Source: Candidatus Hydrogenedentota bacterium
GTDB taxonomy: Bacteria; Hydrogenedentota; Hydrogenedentia; Hydrogenedentales; JAEUWI01
Direction of reading: 5' to 3'
Assembly (NCBI GenBank): GCA_016182605.1
Contig: JACPGE010000056.1
Coordinates: forward strand, 28,964-92,963
Length of the DNA: 64,000 nucleotides
In this document: positions 20,016-41,845 of the stretch, one piece after another
Layout of the letters: each line of letters starts with the position of its first letter
How positions within the stretch are numbered: position 1 is the stretch's first letter
Made by a program: the position numbers and the translations under genes
Notes under the pieces: model-generated
Told to the model about the DNA's origin: nothing
Database searches by the model: none
The model's input: only the letters and a program-made list of their open reading frames with translations

Positions 20016-21752
20016 ATGGCAGAGCGCCCCATTCGAATATTATTGATAGACGACGACCGGGCAGACTATGTCTTGACGCGCGACTACCTCGAAGAGAGTT
20101 TGGCCGGCAGGGTGCATCTCACCTGGAAAAGCTCCTACGAGGAAGGGCTTCAGGCGGCGCAACAGCTTTCCAGCGACCTCATCCTCATGGACTACCGGCT
20201 CGGCGAGCGCGATGGGCTGGCCCTCTTGCAGGAACTGCGGACGCTCCACATCACTACCCCCACAGTCATGCTCACGGCGGTGGGCGAGCGCGCCGTGGAT
20301 GAGCAGGCGCTGGAGGCGGGCGCCGCAGACTACTTGACCAAGGGCGATCTCACGCCCGCCATGCTCGAGCGCACCATTCGTTACACCCTCGCGCGGCACC
20401 AGCTCAAGCTCGAGGCGGAGCGCAGCCGGAACGACCTCCTTTCCATACTCGACCTGTTGCGCATCGGCACTGCCATGACCGATGAACAGGGGCTGCTTAC
20501 CTTCGCCAGCGAAGCCGTCGAGGGCCTGACCGGCAAACGGCGCAAGGTACTCCTCGGAAAGCCCTGGTACGATGCGCTTCCTCTCAATGGCCACGACAAG
20601 GCCGCGCTTATGGATTCCATGCACCAGCCCGCCGCACAGCGGAGCCGCCTCCCCGTGCACTGGGAATCGGCCCGGGGCACGCCCTATTGGCTGGAAATCG
20701 ACGTGCAGGACGATCCGCGCAATCCACACCGGCACATCTTCAGCATCTACGACGTGAGCAACGTGCACGGCCTGCGCAGGCTCCTGGACAAGAAGGCGCA
20801 CTTCGCCGATCTCATCGGCAAGTGCGACATGATGCAGCGCATCTACCAGCAGATCCAGGACCTCGCCGCCTTCGACACCACCGTCATGATCGAAGGCGAC
20901 ACCGGCACCGGCAAGGAACTCGTCGCGCGTGCCGTGCACTACACCAGCCACCGCAAAGACAAGCCCTTCATCGCGGTGAACTGCGCCGGCCTCACCGATT
21001 CCCTGCTCGCGAGCCAGCTCTTCGGCCACCGCCGGGGTGCCTTCACCGGCGCAGTGGACGATCACAAGGGCTTTTTCGAAGCGGCCGAGGGCGGCACGAT
21101 ATTTCTCGACGAGATTGCGGATGTGCCGCCCAACGTGCAAACCTCGCTGTTGCGCGTATTGCAGGAACGGGAGATCGTGCGCGTGGGGGATTCCACGCCC
21201 CGGAAAATCAATGTGCGCGTGCTCACGGCGACCAACCGCGATCTCAGCCGCGAAGTCATGGCAGAGCGCTTCCGCGCGGACCTGCTTTACCGCATTCGCG
21301 TCGCCCGCATTACCCTGCCGCCCCTGCGTCAGCGTCGCGAAGACATTCCCATGCTGATCGATTGGTTCCTGAGAAACTTCGAAGCCTCGTCACAAAAACG
21401 CGTGAACGGTGTGGACCAACGCGCCCTGACCGCCATCATGGACTATCCCTGGCCGGGCAACGTGCGCGAGTTGCAGCACGCCATCGAAGCGGCCGCCATC
21501 CGCTGCCGGGGGACCCAGATTACGCCCGAAGACCTCCCGCCCGAGATTACCGGAGCGCCGGTCATCCTCAACATCGTAAACCACGGCGGGGACTACCAGC
21601 TTCGGGAGCACGAGCGCATTATCGAGGCCATCAACAATGCCGGCGGCAACCGCGCGAAGGCCGCGCGGCACCTCGGAATCAGCCGCACGACACTGTACAG
21701 AAAACTCGCGGAGTTGAAAGGCAATCCGGCGCTGCCCGTGGGCGACTACTGA
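20016..21752 (+). CDS. Sigma-54-dependent response regulator (NtrC family: REC + PAS-like + AAA+ sigma-54 interaction + Fis HTH)
   Basis: ATG 20016 (MAERPIRILLIDDD) with AAGGAAG SD. GDTGTGKELVARAVH Walker A, GAFTGA, FLDEIADV Walker B. C-terminal AARHLGISRTTLYRKL HTH. Confidence 0.85.
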   Translation: MAERPIRILLIDDDRADYVLTRDYLEESLAGRVHLTWKSSYEEGLQAAQQLSSDLILMDYRLGERDGLALLQELRTLHITTPTVMLTAVGERAVDEQALEAGAADYLTKGDLTPAMLERTIRYTLARHQLKLEAERSRNDLLSILDLLRIGTAMTDEQGLLTFASEAVEGLTGKRRKVLLGKPWYDALPLNGHDKAALMDSMHQPAAQRSRLPVHWESARGTPYWLEIDVQDDPRNPHRHIFSIYDVSNVHGLRRLLDKKAHFADLIGKCDMMQRIYQQIQDLAAFDTTVMIEGDTGTGKELVARAVHYTSHRKDKPFIAVNCAGLTDSLLASQLFGHRRGAFTGAVDDHKGFFEAAEGGTIFLDEIADVPPNVQTSLLRVLQEREIVRVGDSTPRKINVRVLTATNRDLSREVMAERFRADLLYRIRVARITLPPLRQRREDIPMLIDWFLRNFEASSQKRVNGVDQRALTAIMDYPWPGNVRELQHAIEAAAIRCRGTQITPEDLPPEITGAPVILNIVNHGGDYQLREHERIIEAINNAGGNRAKAARHLGISRTTLYRKLAELKGNPALPVGDY

Positions 21753-26404: not shown

Positions 26405-27625
26405 ATGCTCAACGATACCTCGCTCCGGGCTTGCACCCAATACGTGCTCGACCAGACCCGCCACGTCATCGAAACCATCGGCGTGCGCCCGCCCGGAAGC
26501 GCTGCCGAACGCAAGTCGCAGGAGTACATACGCGAGGAGTTGCGGGCCAGCTGTGACACCGAGCCCTTCCTGGAGGAGTTCCCCGTGGCCCCGAAGGCCT
26601 TCATGAGCTTCCAGCCGATCATGGGCGCCCTGCTGCTCGGGGCCATGGTGGCCTATTGGTTTTATCCTGCGACGGCGTTCTTATTGAGTACGCTGGCGCT
26701 CTTCGTCTACTTGACCGAATTCGTCCAGTACCGTGAAATGCTCGATGTCTTCTTTCCCAAACAGATCTCGTGCAACGTGGGCGCGTACCAGCGGCCCGCC
26801 GGGGAAGTGAAGCGGCGCTTCATCATCAACGCCCATCCAGACGGCGCATACGAATGGCGCTATCACTACCACTGGCCGAAGCAGTTCAAGTTCATCATCC
26901 TCTATTCTCTGGCGTCCAGCGCGTTTGTCTTCGCCACCAATGTGGCCGCCATTAAGAACGACTGGAGTGGGGGATACCAGGGGGTCTGGCTTGTCGTGGG
27001 GCTGCTGCAACTCCTGTGTGTCCCGGCTCTCATCAGCGCCTTCTTCTACACCAACTTCAAGGTCACCGTGCCGGGCGCCAACGACAACCTTTCCGGCTGC
27101 TTTATTGCCTTGGGGGTCTTGAAGCATATGCGTGAGGCCGGCGTGCAGTTGCAGCACACGGAACTCGGCGTGCTCATCACCGGCTCGGAAGAAGCCGCCC
27201 TGCGCGGCGCCAAGGCCTTCGCGCGCAAACACCCCCGCGACTTCGACGATGTGGAAACCATCTTCATCACGCTCGACACCTTCCGCGATCTCGAGCATTT
27301 CATGGTCGTGGGCCGTGACCTGAATGCGTTGGTGAGGCACGATCGGGCGGTGTGCGAACTGCTGCAGAACGCGGGAGACGCAGCCGGACACCCCTTGCCC
27401 CTGGGCAAGATCCCCCTCGGCGCCTCCGATGCCGCGGCCTTCACGCAGGGCGGTTACCGCGCCGCCGCCCTCGCCGCCATGGACCCCGCGCCCGCCGACT
27501 TCTACCACACCCGCCGCGACAACTGGGACAACATGAATCCGGAATGTATCCGCGCCTGTGTCGAAGTGGTGGTGGAGGCCATCCGCCAATACGATGAAAA
27601 AGGCTTGCCCTTCACGGTGGTCTGA
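26405..27625 (+). CDS. M28-family zinc metallopeptidase, membrane-associated
   Basis: Several TM helices, then GANDNLSGCF and TGSEE M28 metal-ligand motifs. AAGGAGA SD upstream. Confidence 0.65.
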   Translation: MLNDTSLRACTQYVLDQTRHVIETIGVRPPGSAAERKSQEYIREELRASCDTEPFLEEFPVAPKAFMSFQPIMGALLLGAMVAYWFYPATAFLLSTLALFVYLTEFVQYREMLDVFFPKQISCNVGAYQRPAGEVKRRFIINAHPDGAYEWRYHYHWPKQFKFIILYSLASSAFVFATNVAAIKNDWSGGYQGVWLVVGLLQLLCVPALISAFFYTNFKVTVPGANDNLSGCFIALGVLKHMREAGVQLQHTELGVLITGSEEAALRGAKAFARKHPRDFDDVETIFITLDTFRDLEHFMVVGRDLNALVRHDRAVCELLQNAGDAAGHPLPLGKIPLGASDAAAFTQGGYRAAALAAMDPAPADFYHTRRDNWDNMNPECIRACVEVVVEAIRQYDEKGLPFTVV

Positions 27626-27637
27626 GAGAGGCGGTGC

Positions 27638-28240
27638 TTACGGGTTCTTATACACCGCCGCTTCCGGGTCGCCGCCAGCCTCTACAAAGGCGAGCAAGTC
27701 CAGAATCTCCGCCGCCGTAAACGTGGACAACAGGCTCGTCGGCATCGCCGAGAGCGGGGCCTTGCGCAAGGCTTCAATCTCCGATCGCGGAATGACAAGC
27801 GGCTCTTCGGAATAGAAGACCGCATCCCGGATCGTGATCGCGTCTTTCCCTTCTTCGACGAGAAAGCCGGTGACGGCCGTGTAATCCGATTTCATCACCA
27901 GATAGGCCGTGTACTCCGGGTCGATTTTCAGAGAGGGTTCCAGAATCTGGCGCAAGAGTTCCACGCCCTTGAACTTCTCCTGCACCTTCGACAAATCGGG
28001 GCCAATGGGAAATCCCTCACCCTTCAGCAGGTGGCACTTCGTACAGCCGGTCTCCTGAAAGATCTTGCGGCCCGCCTCGAAATGGCGCGGCCTCTGGTCC
28101 TGCTTCAGCACGGGTTCCAGATCGGCAACGGTCCACAGCTTCACGAATTTACGTTCCGGGGTGGCGGCGGGAGCCTCAGTTGGAGCAACCAGTTGTGACA
28201 TCACACAGATTCCAGCAATTACGATCTGCGACATGAACAT
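27638..28240 (-). CDS. Secreted PVC-type heme-binding (CxxCH) cytochrome c domain protein
   Basis: Start at ATG (MFMSQIVIAGICVMSQLVAPTEAPAA signal peptide). GCTKCHLLKGEGFPIGPDLSKV. Homologous to the C-terminal domain of the 46247..49798 protein (ANCHVFGTVGKGGGPDLSTV). Confidence 0.65.
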   Translation of the reverse strand: MFMSQIVIAGICVMSQLVAPTEAPAATPERKFVKLWTVADLEPVLKQDQRPRHFEAGRKIFQETGCTKCHLLKGEGFPIGPDLSKVQEKFKGVELLRQILEPSLKIDPEYTAYLVMKSDYTAVTGFLVEEGKDAITIRDAVFYSEEPLVIPRSEIEALRKAPLSAMPTSLLSTFTAAEILDLLAFVEAGGDPEAAVYKNP

Positions 28241-28390
28241 AGGTTGAAGGCCTCTTGCGGGGGCAGGCAGATTGCCACCAAGGGGAATAAGGGGCGGCCG
28301 GTGGAAATCCGCCAAAGGGCCCGCCGCGCAACGATGGGGCAGTATAGCCGGTGCATGGGGCAGAACGCCAAAGCGCAGGTGTGCCTTTAA

Positions 28391-28420
28391 GTAGGCCTTC
28401 GCTCGCCGAGCGCAGGCATT
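28391..28420. repeat. REP-like palindromic element copy upstream of the RAYT gene
   Basis: gtaggccttcgctcgccgagcgcaggcatt; near-identical to the arm sequence repeated in the 29252..29661 array. Confidence 0.6.
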
Positions 28421-28551
28421 GGCACATATTTCGATTCGGCAGCTTCAGGGGGAAGACATCGAGGATTTAACTGGTGCCTCCGAATCAGACATTGTATCCT
28501 GTGAAATAGAATGTGCGACGTTAGAATACAGGTGTCCGGGACGGCGTTGTT

Positions 28552-29169
28552 ATGAATTCACACGACACAAATTCCTTTTATCGCATGCGATTGCCACATT
28601 GGGAAGTGGGGAGGGGTATCTATTTCGTCACAATGCATGTCTTCGGATCGCTGCCTGTCCAGGTAATGGATGAACTGCGAACGCTGTCTGCCCAGTCGCA
28701 GCATACGGACGAACCCACACAGTGGCATCTTCGCCGGCTGGCGTTCCGCGCCATGGAAAATGCACTCGATCACGATCGCGCGATCGACTATCTCATTCGT
28801 CCGGCTATTGCGGAGTTATGCATGGAGGCAATTCGAAGCCGGGAACAACGTGATATCTGGCACGTAGAGGAATATGTGCTCATGCCGAACCACCTCCACC
28901 TGTTGATTCAACTCAAGTCTGGCAGTCTGAAACCCGTAATGGAATCGTTCAAGCGTTGGACGTCACGGCGTGCTCTGCCTCTGATCGAATTGCACCGCTC
29001 ATTTTGGCAACAGGAATGGTTCGATCATTGGTCCCGAAGTCCCGAGCAGGACGAACGGATACGAGCCTATATTCGCAACAATCCTGTGAAAGCCCGCCTC
29101 GTGAAAGATTATCGGGACTGGCCATACGGATCATGGAACGATCCGGGATTGAACAAGAATTCGCCTTAG
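28552..29169 (+). CDS. REP-associated tyrosine transposase (RAYT; IS200/IS605 Y1 HUH family)
   Basis: RLPHWEVGRGIYFVTMHV N-terminus. HuH motif LMPNHLHLL. C-terminal catalytic-Tyr region (YIRNNPVKARL). Flanked by REP hairpins on both sides. Confidence 0.8.
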   Translation: MNSHDTNSFYRMRLPHWEVGRGIYFVTMHVFGSLPVQVMDELRTLSAQSQHTDEPTQWHLRRLAFRAMENALDHDRAIDYLIRPAIAELCMEAIRSREQRDIWHVEEYVLMPNHLHLLIQLKSGSLKPVMESFKRWTSRRALPLIELHRSFWQQEWFDHWSRSPEQDERIRAYIRNNPVKARLVKDYRDWPYGSWNDPGLNKNSP

Positions 29170-29251
29170 CGGCATACACGAAATAGGAAGAGGCGATGCC
29201 GGGTGCCAAGTTGCTTGAACCCAGATTGAGTTTTGTGAGTAAAAGCGGAAA

Positions 29252-29661
29252 TCACGTCGCTCGGCGAGCGGCGTGCTACTTCTAGATTGCACGGAACGTG
29301 GCGAAGAAGAAAAGTAGGCCTTCGCTCGCCGAGCGTAGGCATTCCACGTTCCGGCAAGTCCCGTGGCGTGCTGGCACCACTCCGAGTCTGATCCGACCCG
29401 CATCCTCCAATCACGTCGCTCGGCGAGCGGCGTGCTACTCTTAGATTGCACGGCGCGTGGCGAAGAGGAAAAAGTAGGCCTTCGCTCGTCGAGCGTAGGC
29501 ATTTCGCGTTCCGGCAAGTCCCGTGGCGTGCTGGCGCCACTCCGAGTCTGATCCGACCCGCATCCTCCAATCACGTCGCTCGGCGAGCGGCGTGGTACTC
29601 TTAGATTGCACGGAACGTGGCGAAGAAGAAAAGTAGGCCTTCGCTCGCCGAGCGTAGGCAT
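29252..29661. repeat. Tandem array (~160 bp x ~2.6) of REP/BIME-like palindromic units
   Basis: Unit starts (tcacgtcgctcggcgagcggcgtg...) at 29252, 29411 and 29571. Each unit holds inverted repeats cgctcggcgagcg / cgctcgccgagcg and cggaacgtgg / ccacgttccg. Track ORFs 29131..29661 and 29166..29570 here are repeat artefacts. Confidence 0.85.
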
Positions 29662-29844
29662 TAAACCCCTCCTCGCATCACCCCGCGCTTAACCAAGCCG
29701 ACCTCAAACCGACGAGCGCCGTCAAGGCGCTCGAATTTTCCCTCCCATCGGGTGTACTGTTTAAACAGGCCGTGGCGCCTCCCCAAGAGAGGAATTTCAT
29801 GCCGCCACGGCGAGGACGCTTCTCACACCATAAAGGGAACTTCC

Positions 29845-30264
29845 ATGACTACCCCAATCCGTTCCACCATTGCCGCGCTCGTGCTGCTGTTGACACTCGG
29901 CCTCAGCGCCTGCAACCAACAAAAGACCGTACCCGCAGAAGAGACCGTCGCGCCCGCGGGCGATTCCACGGAAACCCGGGCCACCCAGTTTGTGGACCTC
30001 CTGGCGGCAAAGAATTTCTCCGCCGCGGTCGCCCAGTTTGACGCCACGATGACGGCGGCCCTCCCGGAAGCCACCCTCGCCACCACTTGGGCCCAGGTGG
30101 AGCAACAGGCCGGTGCCTTCCAGCGCAGCACCGGAACGCGGGCCGCCGCGGAACAGGGCTATGACGTGGTCTACGTCACCTGCCAGTTCGAGCGGGCCTC
30201 CCTGAACGCGAAAGTGGTCTACGACAAGGAAGGGAAGATCGCGGGACTCTTCTTCCAGCCGTAA
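29845..30264 (+). CDS. Lipoprotein (lipobox LGLSAC), function unknown
   Basis: ATG 29845 (MTTPIRSTIAALVLLLTLGLSAC) with AAGGGA SD. 139 aa. Confidence 0.55.
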   Translation: MTTPIRSTIAALVLLLTLGLSACNQQKTVPAEETVAPAGDSTETRATQFVDLLAAKNFSAAVAQFDATMTAALPEATLATTWAQVEQQAGAFQRSTGTRAAAEQGYDVVYVTCQFERASLNAKVVYDKEGKIAGLFFQP

Positions 30265-37712: not shown

Positions 37713-37741
37713 GCGCGGTTGATCGAGATCATGTGTTTGAA

Positions 37742-37772
37742 AGCGGGAACCTTCGGGTTCCCGCTTTCGTTA
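37742..37772 (+). terminator. Perfect hairpin agcgggaacc-UUCG-ggttcccgct + U-rich tail, 30 nt after the Gfo/Idh/MocA gene. Also the left copy of a 24-bp direct repeat bounding the low-GC island
   Basis: 10-bp GC-rich stem with ttcg loop, followed by ttcgtta. Confidence 0.6.
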
Positions 37773-41460: not shown

Positions 41461-41811
41461 CTTATTCCACCACAGACTATCGAGCAATTCGGACCGGGGA
41501 TTGACCTTTCGGATCAGCCGGGGGGGCGATGTCAGATCCGGCGGCGGATTTTGTGTATGCGCGGAATGCGGTGACGCTGACCTATGACCTGGCGGGCTTC
41601 TCGGGGGTGGGTGATGCTTTCGCTCCGGGCGATTGAGCATGGGGACGAGCCCCATGCGCCGCCCGCGGCGCCGTTTGGAGTGGATGGCAATTTTGACGGG
41701 GTGGCGGTGAGTGTGGACGGAGCGGCGTGGTATGAGATTCAGGGGCTGCGGGACCTGCGTTCGGATACGATATGTCACTGTCACCGGCGGCTCCACTCCC
41801 CTGGGGTTTAA
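41461..41811 (+). pseudogene. High-GC gene remnant (frameshifted fragments) inside the island
   Basis: MSDPAADFVYARNAVTLTYDLAGFSGVGDAFAPGD* followed in another frame by ...IEHGDEPHAPPAAPFGVDGNFDGVAVSVDGAAWYEIQG.... Host-like GC. Confidence 0.3.
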
Positions 41812-41845
41812 GTCGGGAACCTTCGGGTTCCCGCTTTGTCCTTTC
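41812..41845 (+). terminator. Hairpin cgggaacc-UUCG-ggttcccg + U-rich tail. Right copy of the 24-bp direct repeat
   Basis: Identical over cgggaaccttcgggttcccgcttt to 37744..37767. Confidence 0.55.

Follow-up and report, generated by a model that had tools for sequence, protein, structure and literature searches.

The window analysed here, a 64,000-nucleotide (64-kb) stretch of contig JACPGE010000056.1 from a Candidatus Hydrogenedentota bacterium (positions 28,964 to 92,963, forward strand), very probably holds a REPtron, i.e., a gene, present once in the window, that encodes a REP-associated tyrosine transposase (RAYT, also TnpA_REP), a Y1 HUH endonuclease/ligase of single-stranded DNA (ssDNA), enclosed by its cognate repetitive extragenic palindromic (REP) hairpins. 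The gene occupies 28552-29169 on the + strand, and around it stand seven 27-nt tagged hairpins, four of a type designated y on the + strand and three of a type designated z on the - strand. Read along the + strand, the order is y(+) – RAYT – z(-) y(+) z(-) y(+) z(-) y(+), so that the gene lies between one upstream hairpin and a tandem array of downstream ones.

The gene was delimited from the listing of open reading frames (ORFs) and characterized with family models, a comparison with structures in the PDB and an alignment of 26 homologues. Its 205-aa product begins with MNSHDTNSFYRMRLPHWEV, carries RLPHW at residues 13-17, and further along contains PNHLHLL and AYIRNNPV; the HUH motif is H114-L-H116, and the catalytic tyrosine is Y173, inside YIRNNP (Y173-IRN-N177-P178). 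The residues H114, H116, Y173, N177 and P178 are unchanged in 26/26 homologues, and the length is typical of this set, which ranges from 194 to 213 aa. An earlier interpretation made from the letters of the window and its ORFs (the sequence-only reading) had called the gene a RAYT-type Y1 HUH transposase on the strength of such motifs, and had proposed that the protein be aligned with the RAYT and the IS200 groups. That comparison bears out the assignment: the protein scores 84.4 bits against the NCBIfam curated equivalog REP_Tyr_transpos (NF047646), above its cut-off of 80, whereas with the equivalog transpos_IS200 (NF033573) it reaches 23.6 bits and fails the cut-off of 55. Among solved structures the best match is the E. 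coli TnpA_REP, 4ER8 (phmmer with the single sequence, E = 1.4e-4, 25 bits); the alignment is weak, with an alignable core of query residues 100-196, and places HLH opposite HMH and AYIRNNPV opposite DYIYINPV, with the HUH motif and the tyrosine in register. A profile built from the 26 homologues gives 44.5 bits for 4ER8, versus 20-27 bits (maximum 26.8) for the TnpA structures of IS200/IS605 elements (2EC2, 2F4F and 2XM3).

Judged by these comparisons, the protein is a member of the RAYT branch of the Y1 HUH family with its catalytic residues kept, and not an IS200 TnpA. The signature of class 2 (TnpA_REP) is Y---NP, and a tnpA_REP-like gene is encoded by more than 25% of species (PMC6006769). 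With its motif set NHLH / WQ / YIRNNP and a distance of about 58 residues from HUH to the tyrosine, the protein would fit class 2, and its motifs resemble those of subclasses 2.7 and 2.4 of that scheme, as far as a comparison of motifs alone can place it. An identical protein (P0001) is already annotated automatically in public databases as transposase/RayT, and the nearest relatives found in the protein search are 66% and 59% identical.

Each REP consists of a GTAG tag (GTAC in one copy) and a 23-nt imperfect palindrome. The y type reads GTAG GCCT T CGCTCG C CGAGCG T AGGC on the + strand, and the z type GTAG CACG C CGCTCG C CGAGCG A CGTG on the - strand. Common to both is the apex CGCTCG-C-CGAGCG, and with the conserved flanks included, y and z both take the form AAGTAG-N5-CGCTCGCCGAGCG-N5-ATT. 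As ssDNA, the two types have one and the same predicted shape: four base pairs in the lower stem, then a 1x1 mismatch, which is T·T in y and C·A in z, and above it a 5-bp upper stem closed by a 3-nt loop; the predicted energies are -8.2 to -8.7 kcal/mol. The lower stems differ at four of four pairs and are still complementary, GCCT/AGGC in y and CACG/CGTG in z, which is compensatory change inside one locus. When up to three mismatches were allowed, the y 27-mer was matched four times and the z 27-mer three times, versus no match in 100 dinucleotide-preserving shuffles.

The REP-like palindrome that the sequence-only reading had placed some 130 nt upstream of the gene is there: it is y REP no. 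1 (AAGTAG-GCCT-T-CGCTCG-C-CGAGCG-C-AGGC-ATT, 28389-28420, + strand, ssDNA fold of -8.4 kcal/mol), whose core, GTAGGCCTTCGCTCGCCGAGCGCAGGC at 28391-28417, has its final base 134 nt ahead of the RAYT ATG. Together with z REP no. 1 (29253-29279, - strand, -8.2 kcal/mol, of y-like shape) it forms an inverted pair that encloses the gene, with 24-nt arms that are 83% complementary to 28389-28412. Further downstream, no mismatch is found in y REP no. 2 (29314-29340, + strand, -8.7 kcal/mol, z-score -2.8), z REP no. 2 (29412-29438, - strand) or y REP no. 4 (29633-29659, + strand), the final element of the array, and a single one is found in y REP no. 3 (29474-29500, + strand), where the loop C is replaced by T, and in z REP no. 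3 (29572-29598, - strand), where the tag is GTAC and not GTAG.

The strongest evidence that these hairpins may be the cognate sites of the enzyme is the conserved linkage of gene and hairpins in related loci. Genomic context was taken for nine homologues of 41-66% identity (L104, L105, L106, L107, L109, L110, L117, L118 and L119), and in 9/9 of these loci GTAG- or GTAC-tagged hairpins flank the RAYT homologue on both sides, mostly as doublets with the tags outward; tandem or multiple doublets beside homologues are present in independent assemblies. The closest homologue, at 66%, lies on a 993-bp Logan contig (L104), which has two upstream y-type REPs close to its start (at 24 and 111) with the lower stem seen in the window (GTAGGCCTTCGCTCG-AT-GAGCGCAGGC) and, downstream, a z-like hairpin within which the 3' end of the contig falls. 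The apex CGCTCG-C-CGAGCG recurs on other lower stems in L106, L107 and L118, and the apices of L109, L110, L117 and L119 are different. The REPs of the homologue loci are mostly limited to the flanks of the gene; L105 alone has one additional doublet, 2 kb away.

Several of these homologues have genes of defence, mobile-element or metabolic type as neighbours. At L109 (3461-10170), the homologue P0080 and its REPs lie between a SMC/SbcC-like, JetC-type gene and MksE/JetB and DUF3375 genes, a context that looks like a Wadjet-type defence operon with a RAYT homologue inside. At L110 (9379-11376), the homologue P0054 lies between ispF (YgbB) and ispD, two genes of the isoprenoid pathway that are both on the - strand, and the RAYT ORF has REPs overlapping its 3' end. 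At L119 (8222-9844), the homologue has a 540-aa RVT_1 reverse transcriptase next to it, and pairs of a nucleotidyltransferase and a HepT/HEPN toxin, i.e., toxin-antitoxin pairs, adjoin those at L105 (10887-11532) and L110 (16319-17025).

How such a locus would operate can be proposed by analogy with the TnpA_REP work in E. coli, S. maltophilia and Marinomonas (PMC3479197; PMC8266576). The enzyme would bind the folded REP on ssDNA in a strand-specific manner, for example at a replication fork, and would read the GTAG tag together with unpaired features such as the loop and the mismatch. Cleavage and rejoining of ssDNA beside the hairpin might then allow REPs and REP doublets to be copied or moved in trans. 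The array itself would most likely have arisen through unequal recombination or slippage between REPs.

This array had been described from the sequence as 2.6 units of about 160 bp, and Tandem Repeats Finder returned the same figures (period 160 x 2.6, 29250-29662, score 747, 93% matches, no indels scored). Its pattern is z(-) / 34 nt / y(+) / 71 nt, reiterated 2.6 times, where the 34 nt separate inward-facing tags and the 71 nt separate hairpin bodies. In an alignment of the units, the linkers are conserved to the level of the REPs themselves (93-97%), and the units differ by few substitutions and one 1-nt indel. The arms of a z-y pair are 24 nt long and 83% complementary, with a fold z-score of -3.5. 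The array thus has two REP types in alternating orientation, regular spacing and conserved linkers, and is like a bacterial interspersed mosaic element (BIME), as had been suggested; it is the one such locus seen in the window. A catalogue of 24 GTAG REP families (Di Nocera et al. 2013, PMC3733652) describes head-to-head and tail-to-tail (HH/TT) dimers with spacers of 20-100 bp, clusters of tandem-reiterated dimers, and REP-flanked RAYT genes, for which it uses the name REPtrons. Because the linkers match the REPs in conservation, and because reiterated dimers are known for REP/BIME, the array most plausibly stems from one z-y doublet that was recently duplicated in tandem together with its linker, and not from a series of independent insertions.

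The further claim that each unit contains two nested inverted repeats is roughly right. Every unit does contain a z and a y hairpin; the additional 10-bp inverted repeat CGGAACGTGG / CCACGTTCCG, which was found around y REP no. 2 (29292-29353, + strand) by an inverted-repeat search and in the minimum free energy fold, brackets, or starts to bracket, y in units 1 and 3 and is degraded in unit 2. This bracket helix is probably incidental, since it is neither conserved nor compensated between units. ORFs inside the array are very likely spurious, as had been supposed, because they are built from repeats and have no Pfam match; this applies to the 176-aa ORF at 29131-29661 on the - strand, and for annotation, the ORFs called within that interval are very likely repeat artefacts. 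A CRISPR interpretation of the array was rejected, the entire 160-bp unit being repeated, "spacers" included, with no cas genes adjacent. Directly past the array and ahead of the next gene lies a terminator-like G+C hairpin, CGAGCGCCGTCAAGGCGCTCG followed by AATTTTCCCT (29713-29733, + strand), with CGAGCG/CGCTCG arms as in the REP apex; it may or may not be part of the element.

The same REP design was then sought elsewhere by scanning species-representative genomes with GTAG-N5-CGCTCGCCGAGCG, which yielded at least 103 loci; among the matches listed, none comes from the source genome. The repeat is dispersed, often as doublets, in metagenome-assembled genomes (MAGs) of at least three phyla (loci L008-L103; e.g., L021 4296-4408, L052 3177-3290 and L050 7363-7419). 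The Hydrogenedentota MAG JACPGD01 has at least 26 copies, spread over 19 contigs, and there are at least 23 in CAXXQT01 (Thermoguttaceae), at least nine in CAZBEO01 (Verrucomicrobiota), and at least seven and at least six, respectively, in JAITQV01 and JAIROD01 (both Planctomycetaceae). The lower stem is specific to each assembly and complementary: of the five bases that flank the apex to the left and right, 4.5-4.7 of 5 pair in JACPGD01, JAITQV01 and CAZBEO01, versus 1.6 of 5 in 38 singleton chance matches, and the score of CAXXQT01 is low solely from a 1-nt bulge. As those five bases lay outside the search pattern, their pairing amounts to between-genome covariation for the hairpin. It might be that the REPs of the window belong to a cross-phylum design, whose GTAG tag and 13-nt apex (CGCTCG-C-CGAGCG) are fixed and whose lower stem can vary provided that it pairs; this we offer as a tentative idea and consider it on balance rather unlikely. 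No RAYT was found in the 103 listed REP-bearing loci with tblastn using the RAYT of the window. Were all these REPs to travel with one "RLPHW" RAYT clade, it would mean that REPtrons move between phyla of the Fibrobacteres-Chlorobi-Bacteroidetes (FCB) and Planctomycetes-Verrucomicrobia-Chlamydiae (PVC) groups, and that the recognition determinant of this clade is the apex with its loop and not the stem.

Some observations weigh against the interpretation of the locus as a REPtron. All seven REPs lie within 28389-29662, and the ~62.7 kb of the window outside this locus yielded no copy of either type; the core CGCTCGSCGAGCG, searched window-wide with at most one mismatch, returned the seven REPs and one non-palindromic near-match at 20197. 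The 18-mer cgctcggcgagcggcgtg, which had been suggested as a probe for dispersed copies, is a part of the z REP, which by its own search occurs three times in the window, always in the array. Other hairpins with a GT[AG][GC] tag occur at six sites in the window versus 3-11 in shuffles, which indicates no second REP family, and a repeat search of the full 64 kb revealed no further short dispersed family. A scan of JGI metagenomes with the y REP gave six matches, none of which completes the hairpin, so that they are ascribed to chance. High-copy dispersal, the hallmark of classical REP systems, is therefore not seen within the 64-kb window. As for the protein, its Pfam Y1_Tnp match (33.7 bits) spans only residues 86-177, in the C-terminal two thirds, a partial coverage that is accounted for by a segment of about 50 residues between strand beta-1 and HUH which this clade has and which lies outside the model. 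The lack of REP copies elsewhere in the window does not exclude the locus from the family, because REPtrons are documented in species without a corresponding REP family (PMC3733652).

These null results lend themselves to another reading, in which this is precisely such a REPtron, one that lacks a REP family: the RAYT and its local hairpins are real, but these REPs either never dispersed through the genome or are dispersed there no longer, the array is a local duplication, and the gene is perhaps a recent or decaying passenger. Besides the absence of copies outside the locus and the documented precedents, it would accord with the homologue loci, where REPs are also mostly at the gene flanks, and with base composition. 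The G+C content of the RAYT gene is ~0.52, and that of the gene with its 5' leader (28400-29300) about 0.51-0.54, versus 0.57-0.69 in the surroundings, which is compatible with horizontal acquisition of the REPtron and fits a foreign origin. However, the 64 kb represent only a small part of a genome that measures several Mb, the ORF is uninterrupted and its catalytic residues are complete, and the REP design is clearly dispersed in JACPGD01, another MAG of Hydrogenedentota. In addition, short-read assemblies break at multi-copy repeats, and the L104 contig, being bounded by REPs, suggests that the REP is multi-copy in the organism of the closest homologue. Non-dispersal is thus a credible possibility, though we hold it to be somewhat doubtful.

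The array might also be mainly a cis-acting RNA or DNA structure (a stabilizer of transcript ends, an attenuator, or a gyrase- or IHF-like binding site) that is kept for that role. Its stable hairpins do come directly after the 3' end of the RAYT ORF, with the DUF3887 gene downstream of them, the terminator-like hairpin and T-run at 29713-29733 follow, and such roles are described for enterobacterial REPs and BIMEs (PMC2817692, PMC3733652). Against this, an Rfam search of 28200-29900 with a permissive E-value gave no family match, the REP hairpins are without T-runs, and the extra bracket helix is not kept between units, so that this explanation is considered unlikely. A cis-regulatory role, e.g., in transcript-end stabilization, is possible and would be compatible with a role of the hairpins as transposase substrate.

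Very improbable, in turn, is an autonomous insertion sequence (IS) of the IS200/IS605 type, in which y and z would serve as subterminal end structures, left and right, of a y-gene-z unit that transposes as a whole. What such elements (IS608, ISDra2) have in common with the locus is the protein superfamily (Pfam Y1_Tnp) and its fold, the principle of ssDNA hairpin recognition, and, on the 5' side of the hairpin, a tetranucleotide comparable to the guide sequence; the gene does sit between two inverted hairpins, formally like left and right ends, and its G+C is below that of its surroundings. Yet the protein falls far under the cut-off of the IS200 model and passes that for RAYTs, and the profile favours TnpA_REP over TnpAs of the IS608/ISDra2 type by about 18-25 bits. 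Moreover, GTAG tags and y/z REP doublets are characteristic of RAYTs, and the flanking hairpins are one repeated REP family instead of distinct ends. The gene is present in a single copy in the window (tblastn), neither tnpB nor a second transposase copy was found near it within the 64 kb, and the near-identical recent copies that are expected of an active IS are absent from the protein search. That the 2.6-copy array is an artefact of MAG assembly, through repeat expansion or a chimeric join at the REPs, is likewise highly unlikely: the sequence does come from a MAG, and short-read assemblies are prone to errors at short repeats, but the units carry specific substitutions and a 1-nt indel that are unexpected from duplicated reads, the flanks run on into a 253,669-bp contig, and multiple REP doublets accompany homologues in assemblies that are independent of this one.

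The REPtron can be compared with that of E. coli K-12 (TnpA_REP/YafM, 4ER8). The two share a Y1 HUH enzyme with aligned HUH motif and catalytic tyrosine, a REP whose GTAG tag stands on the 5' side of an imperfect, internally mismatched hairpin, y and z REPs that alternate at regular spacing in a BIME-like manner, and inverted REPs that enclose the gene. In contrast to the 165-aa E. coli protein, the one described here has 205 aa, with an N-terminal RLPHW motif and an insert of about 50 residues before HUH; its REP is shorter (27 nt, stems of 4+5 bp and a 3-nt loop), no dispersed REPs accompany it in the 64 kb, and the host is a member of the Hydrogenedentota. With the REP doublets (REPINs) and RAYTs of P. 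fluorescens SBW25 (Bertels and Rainey 2011; group 3 = subclass 2.5) it shares inverted REP doublets that can form one long hairpin and a repeat-flanked RAYT that is single-copy, here within the window. The motifs of subclass 2.5 are DH[LF]H / WQ / YI[VI]ANP, whereas those found here have NHLH and YIRNNP at the corresponding places, and the hundreds of REPINs of SBW25 stand against seven REPs at one locus in the window.

Also comparable are the REPtrons of Rhodopirellula baltica and Opitutus terrae (PMC3733652), which have a GTAG tag with a stem of 6-13 bp, dimers reiterated in tandem with flanking DNA, a REP-flanked RAYT and a non-proteobacterial host, all of which are shared by the present locus. 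According to the same source, GTAG-tagged REPs occur in more than 80 species of eight phyla, including Planctomycetes (R. baltica), Verrucomicrobia (O. terrae), Cyanobacteria and Chloroflexi; the novelty that the sequence-only reading had seen in a host outside the Proteobacteria is accordingly weak, since REPtrons and reiterated dimers of Planctomycetes and Verrucomicrobia were already known. Hydrogenedentota is not among the phyla listed in that catalogue, and the literature searched contained no paper connecting RAYTs with Hydrogenedentota. The locus is a well-formed REPtron of an established type in an additional phylum, which extends the RAYT/REP systems known so far to Candidatus Hydrogenedentota and leaves the understanding of REPtrons unchanged. 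Its y and z variants, the GTAG and GTAC tags and the lower-stem covariation across relatives constitute a compact natural data set, from which the tag, loop and mismatch emerge as candidates for what this biochemically unstudied RAYT clade recognizes.

The host had been thought to be of PVC lineage, a placement that does not hold: a protein 100% identical to the RAYT comes from a Candidatus Hydrogenedentes MAG, and Candidatus Hydrogenedentota belongs, in NCBI taxonomy, to the FCB group. The surroundings of the locus are ordinary chromosomal genes, with an M28 peptidase (26405-27625, + strand) and a cytochrome c protein (27638-28315, - strand) on the upstream side, a DUF3887 lipoprotein (29845-30264, + strand) on the downstream side, and a zinc-ribbon protein and an SPFH/Band-7 protein as further neighbours. 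Elsewhere in the window, a perfect palindrome, AAAGCGGGAACC-TTCG-GGTTCCCGCTTT, is present in two copies (37732-37767 and 41802-41837) with an identity of 86% over 36 nt; it resembles an intrinsic terminator that is shared and may act in both directions, and has no relation to the REPs.

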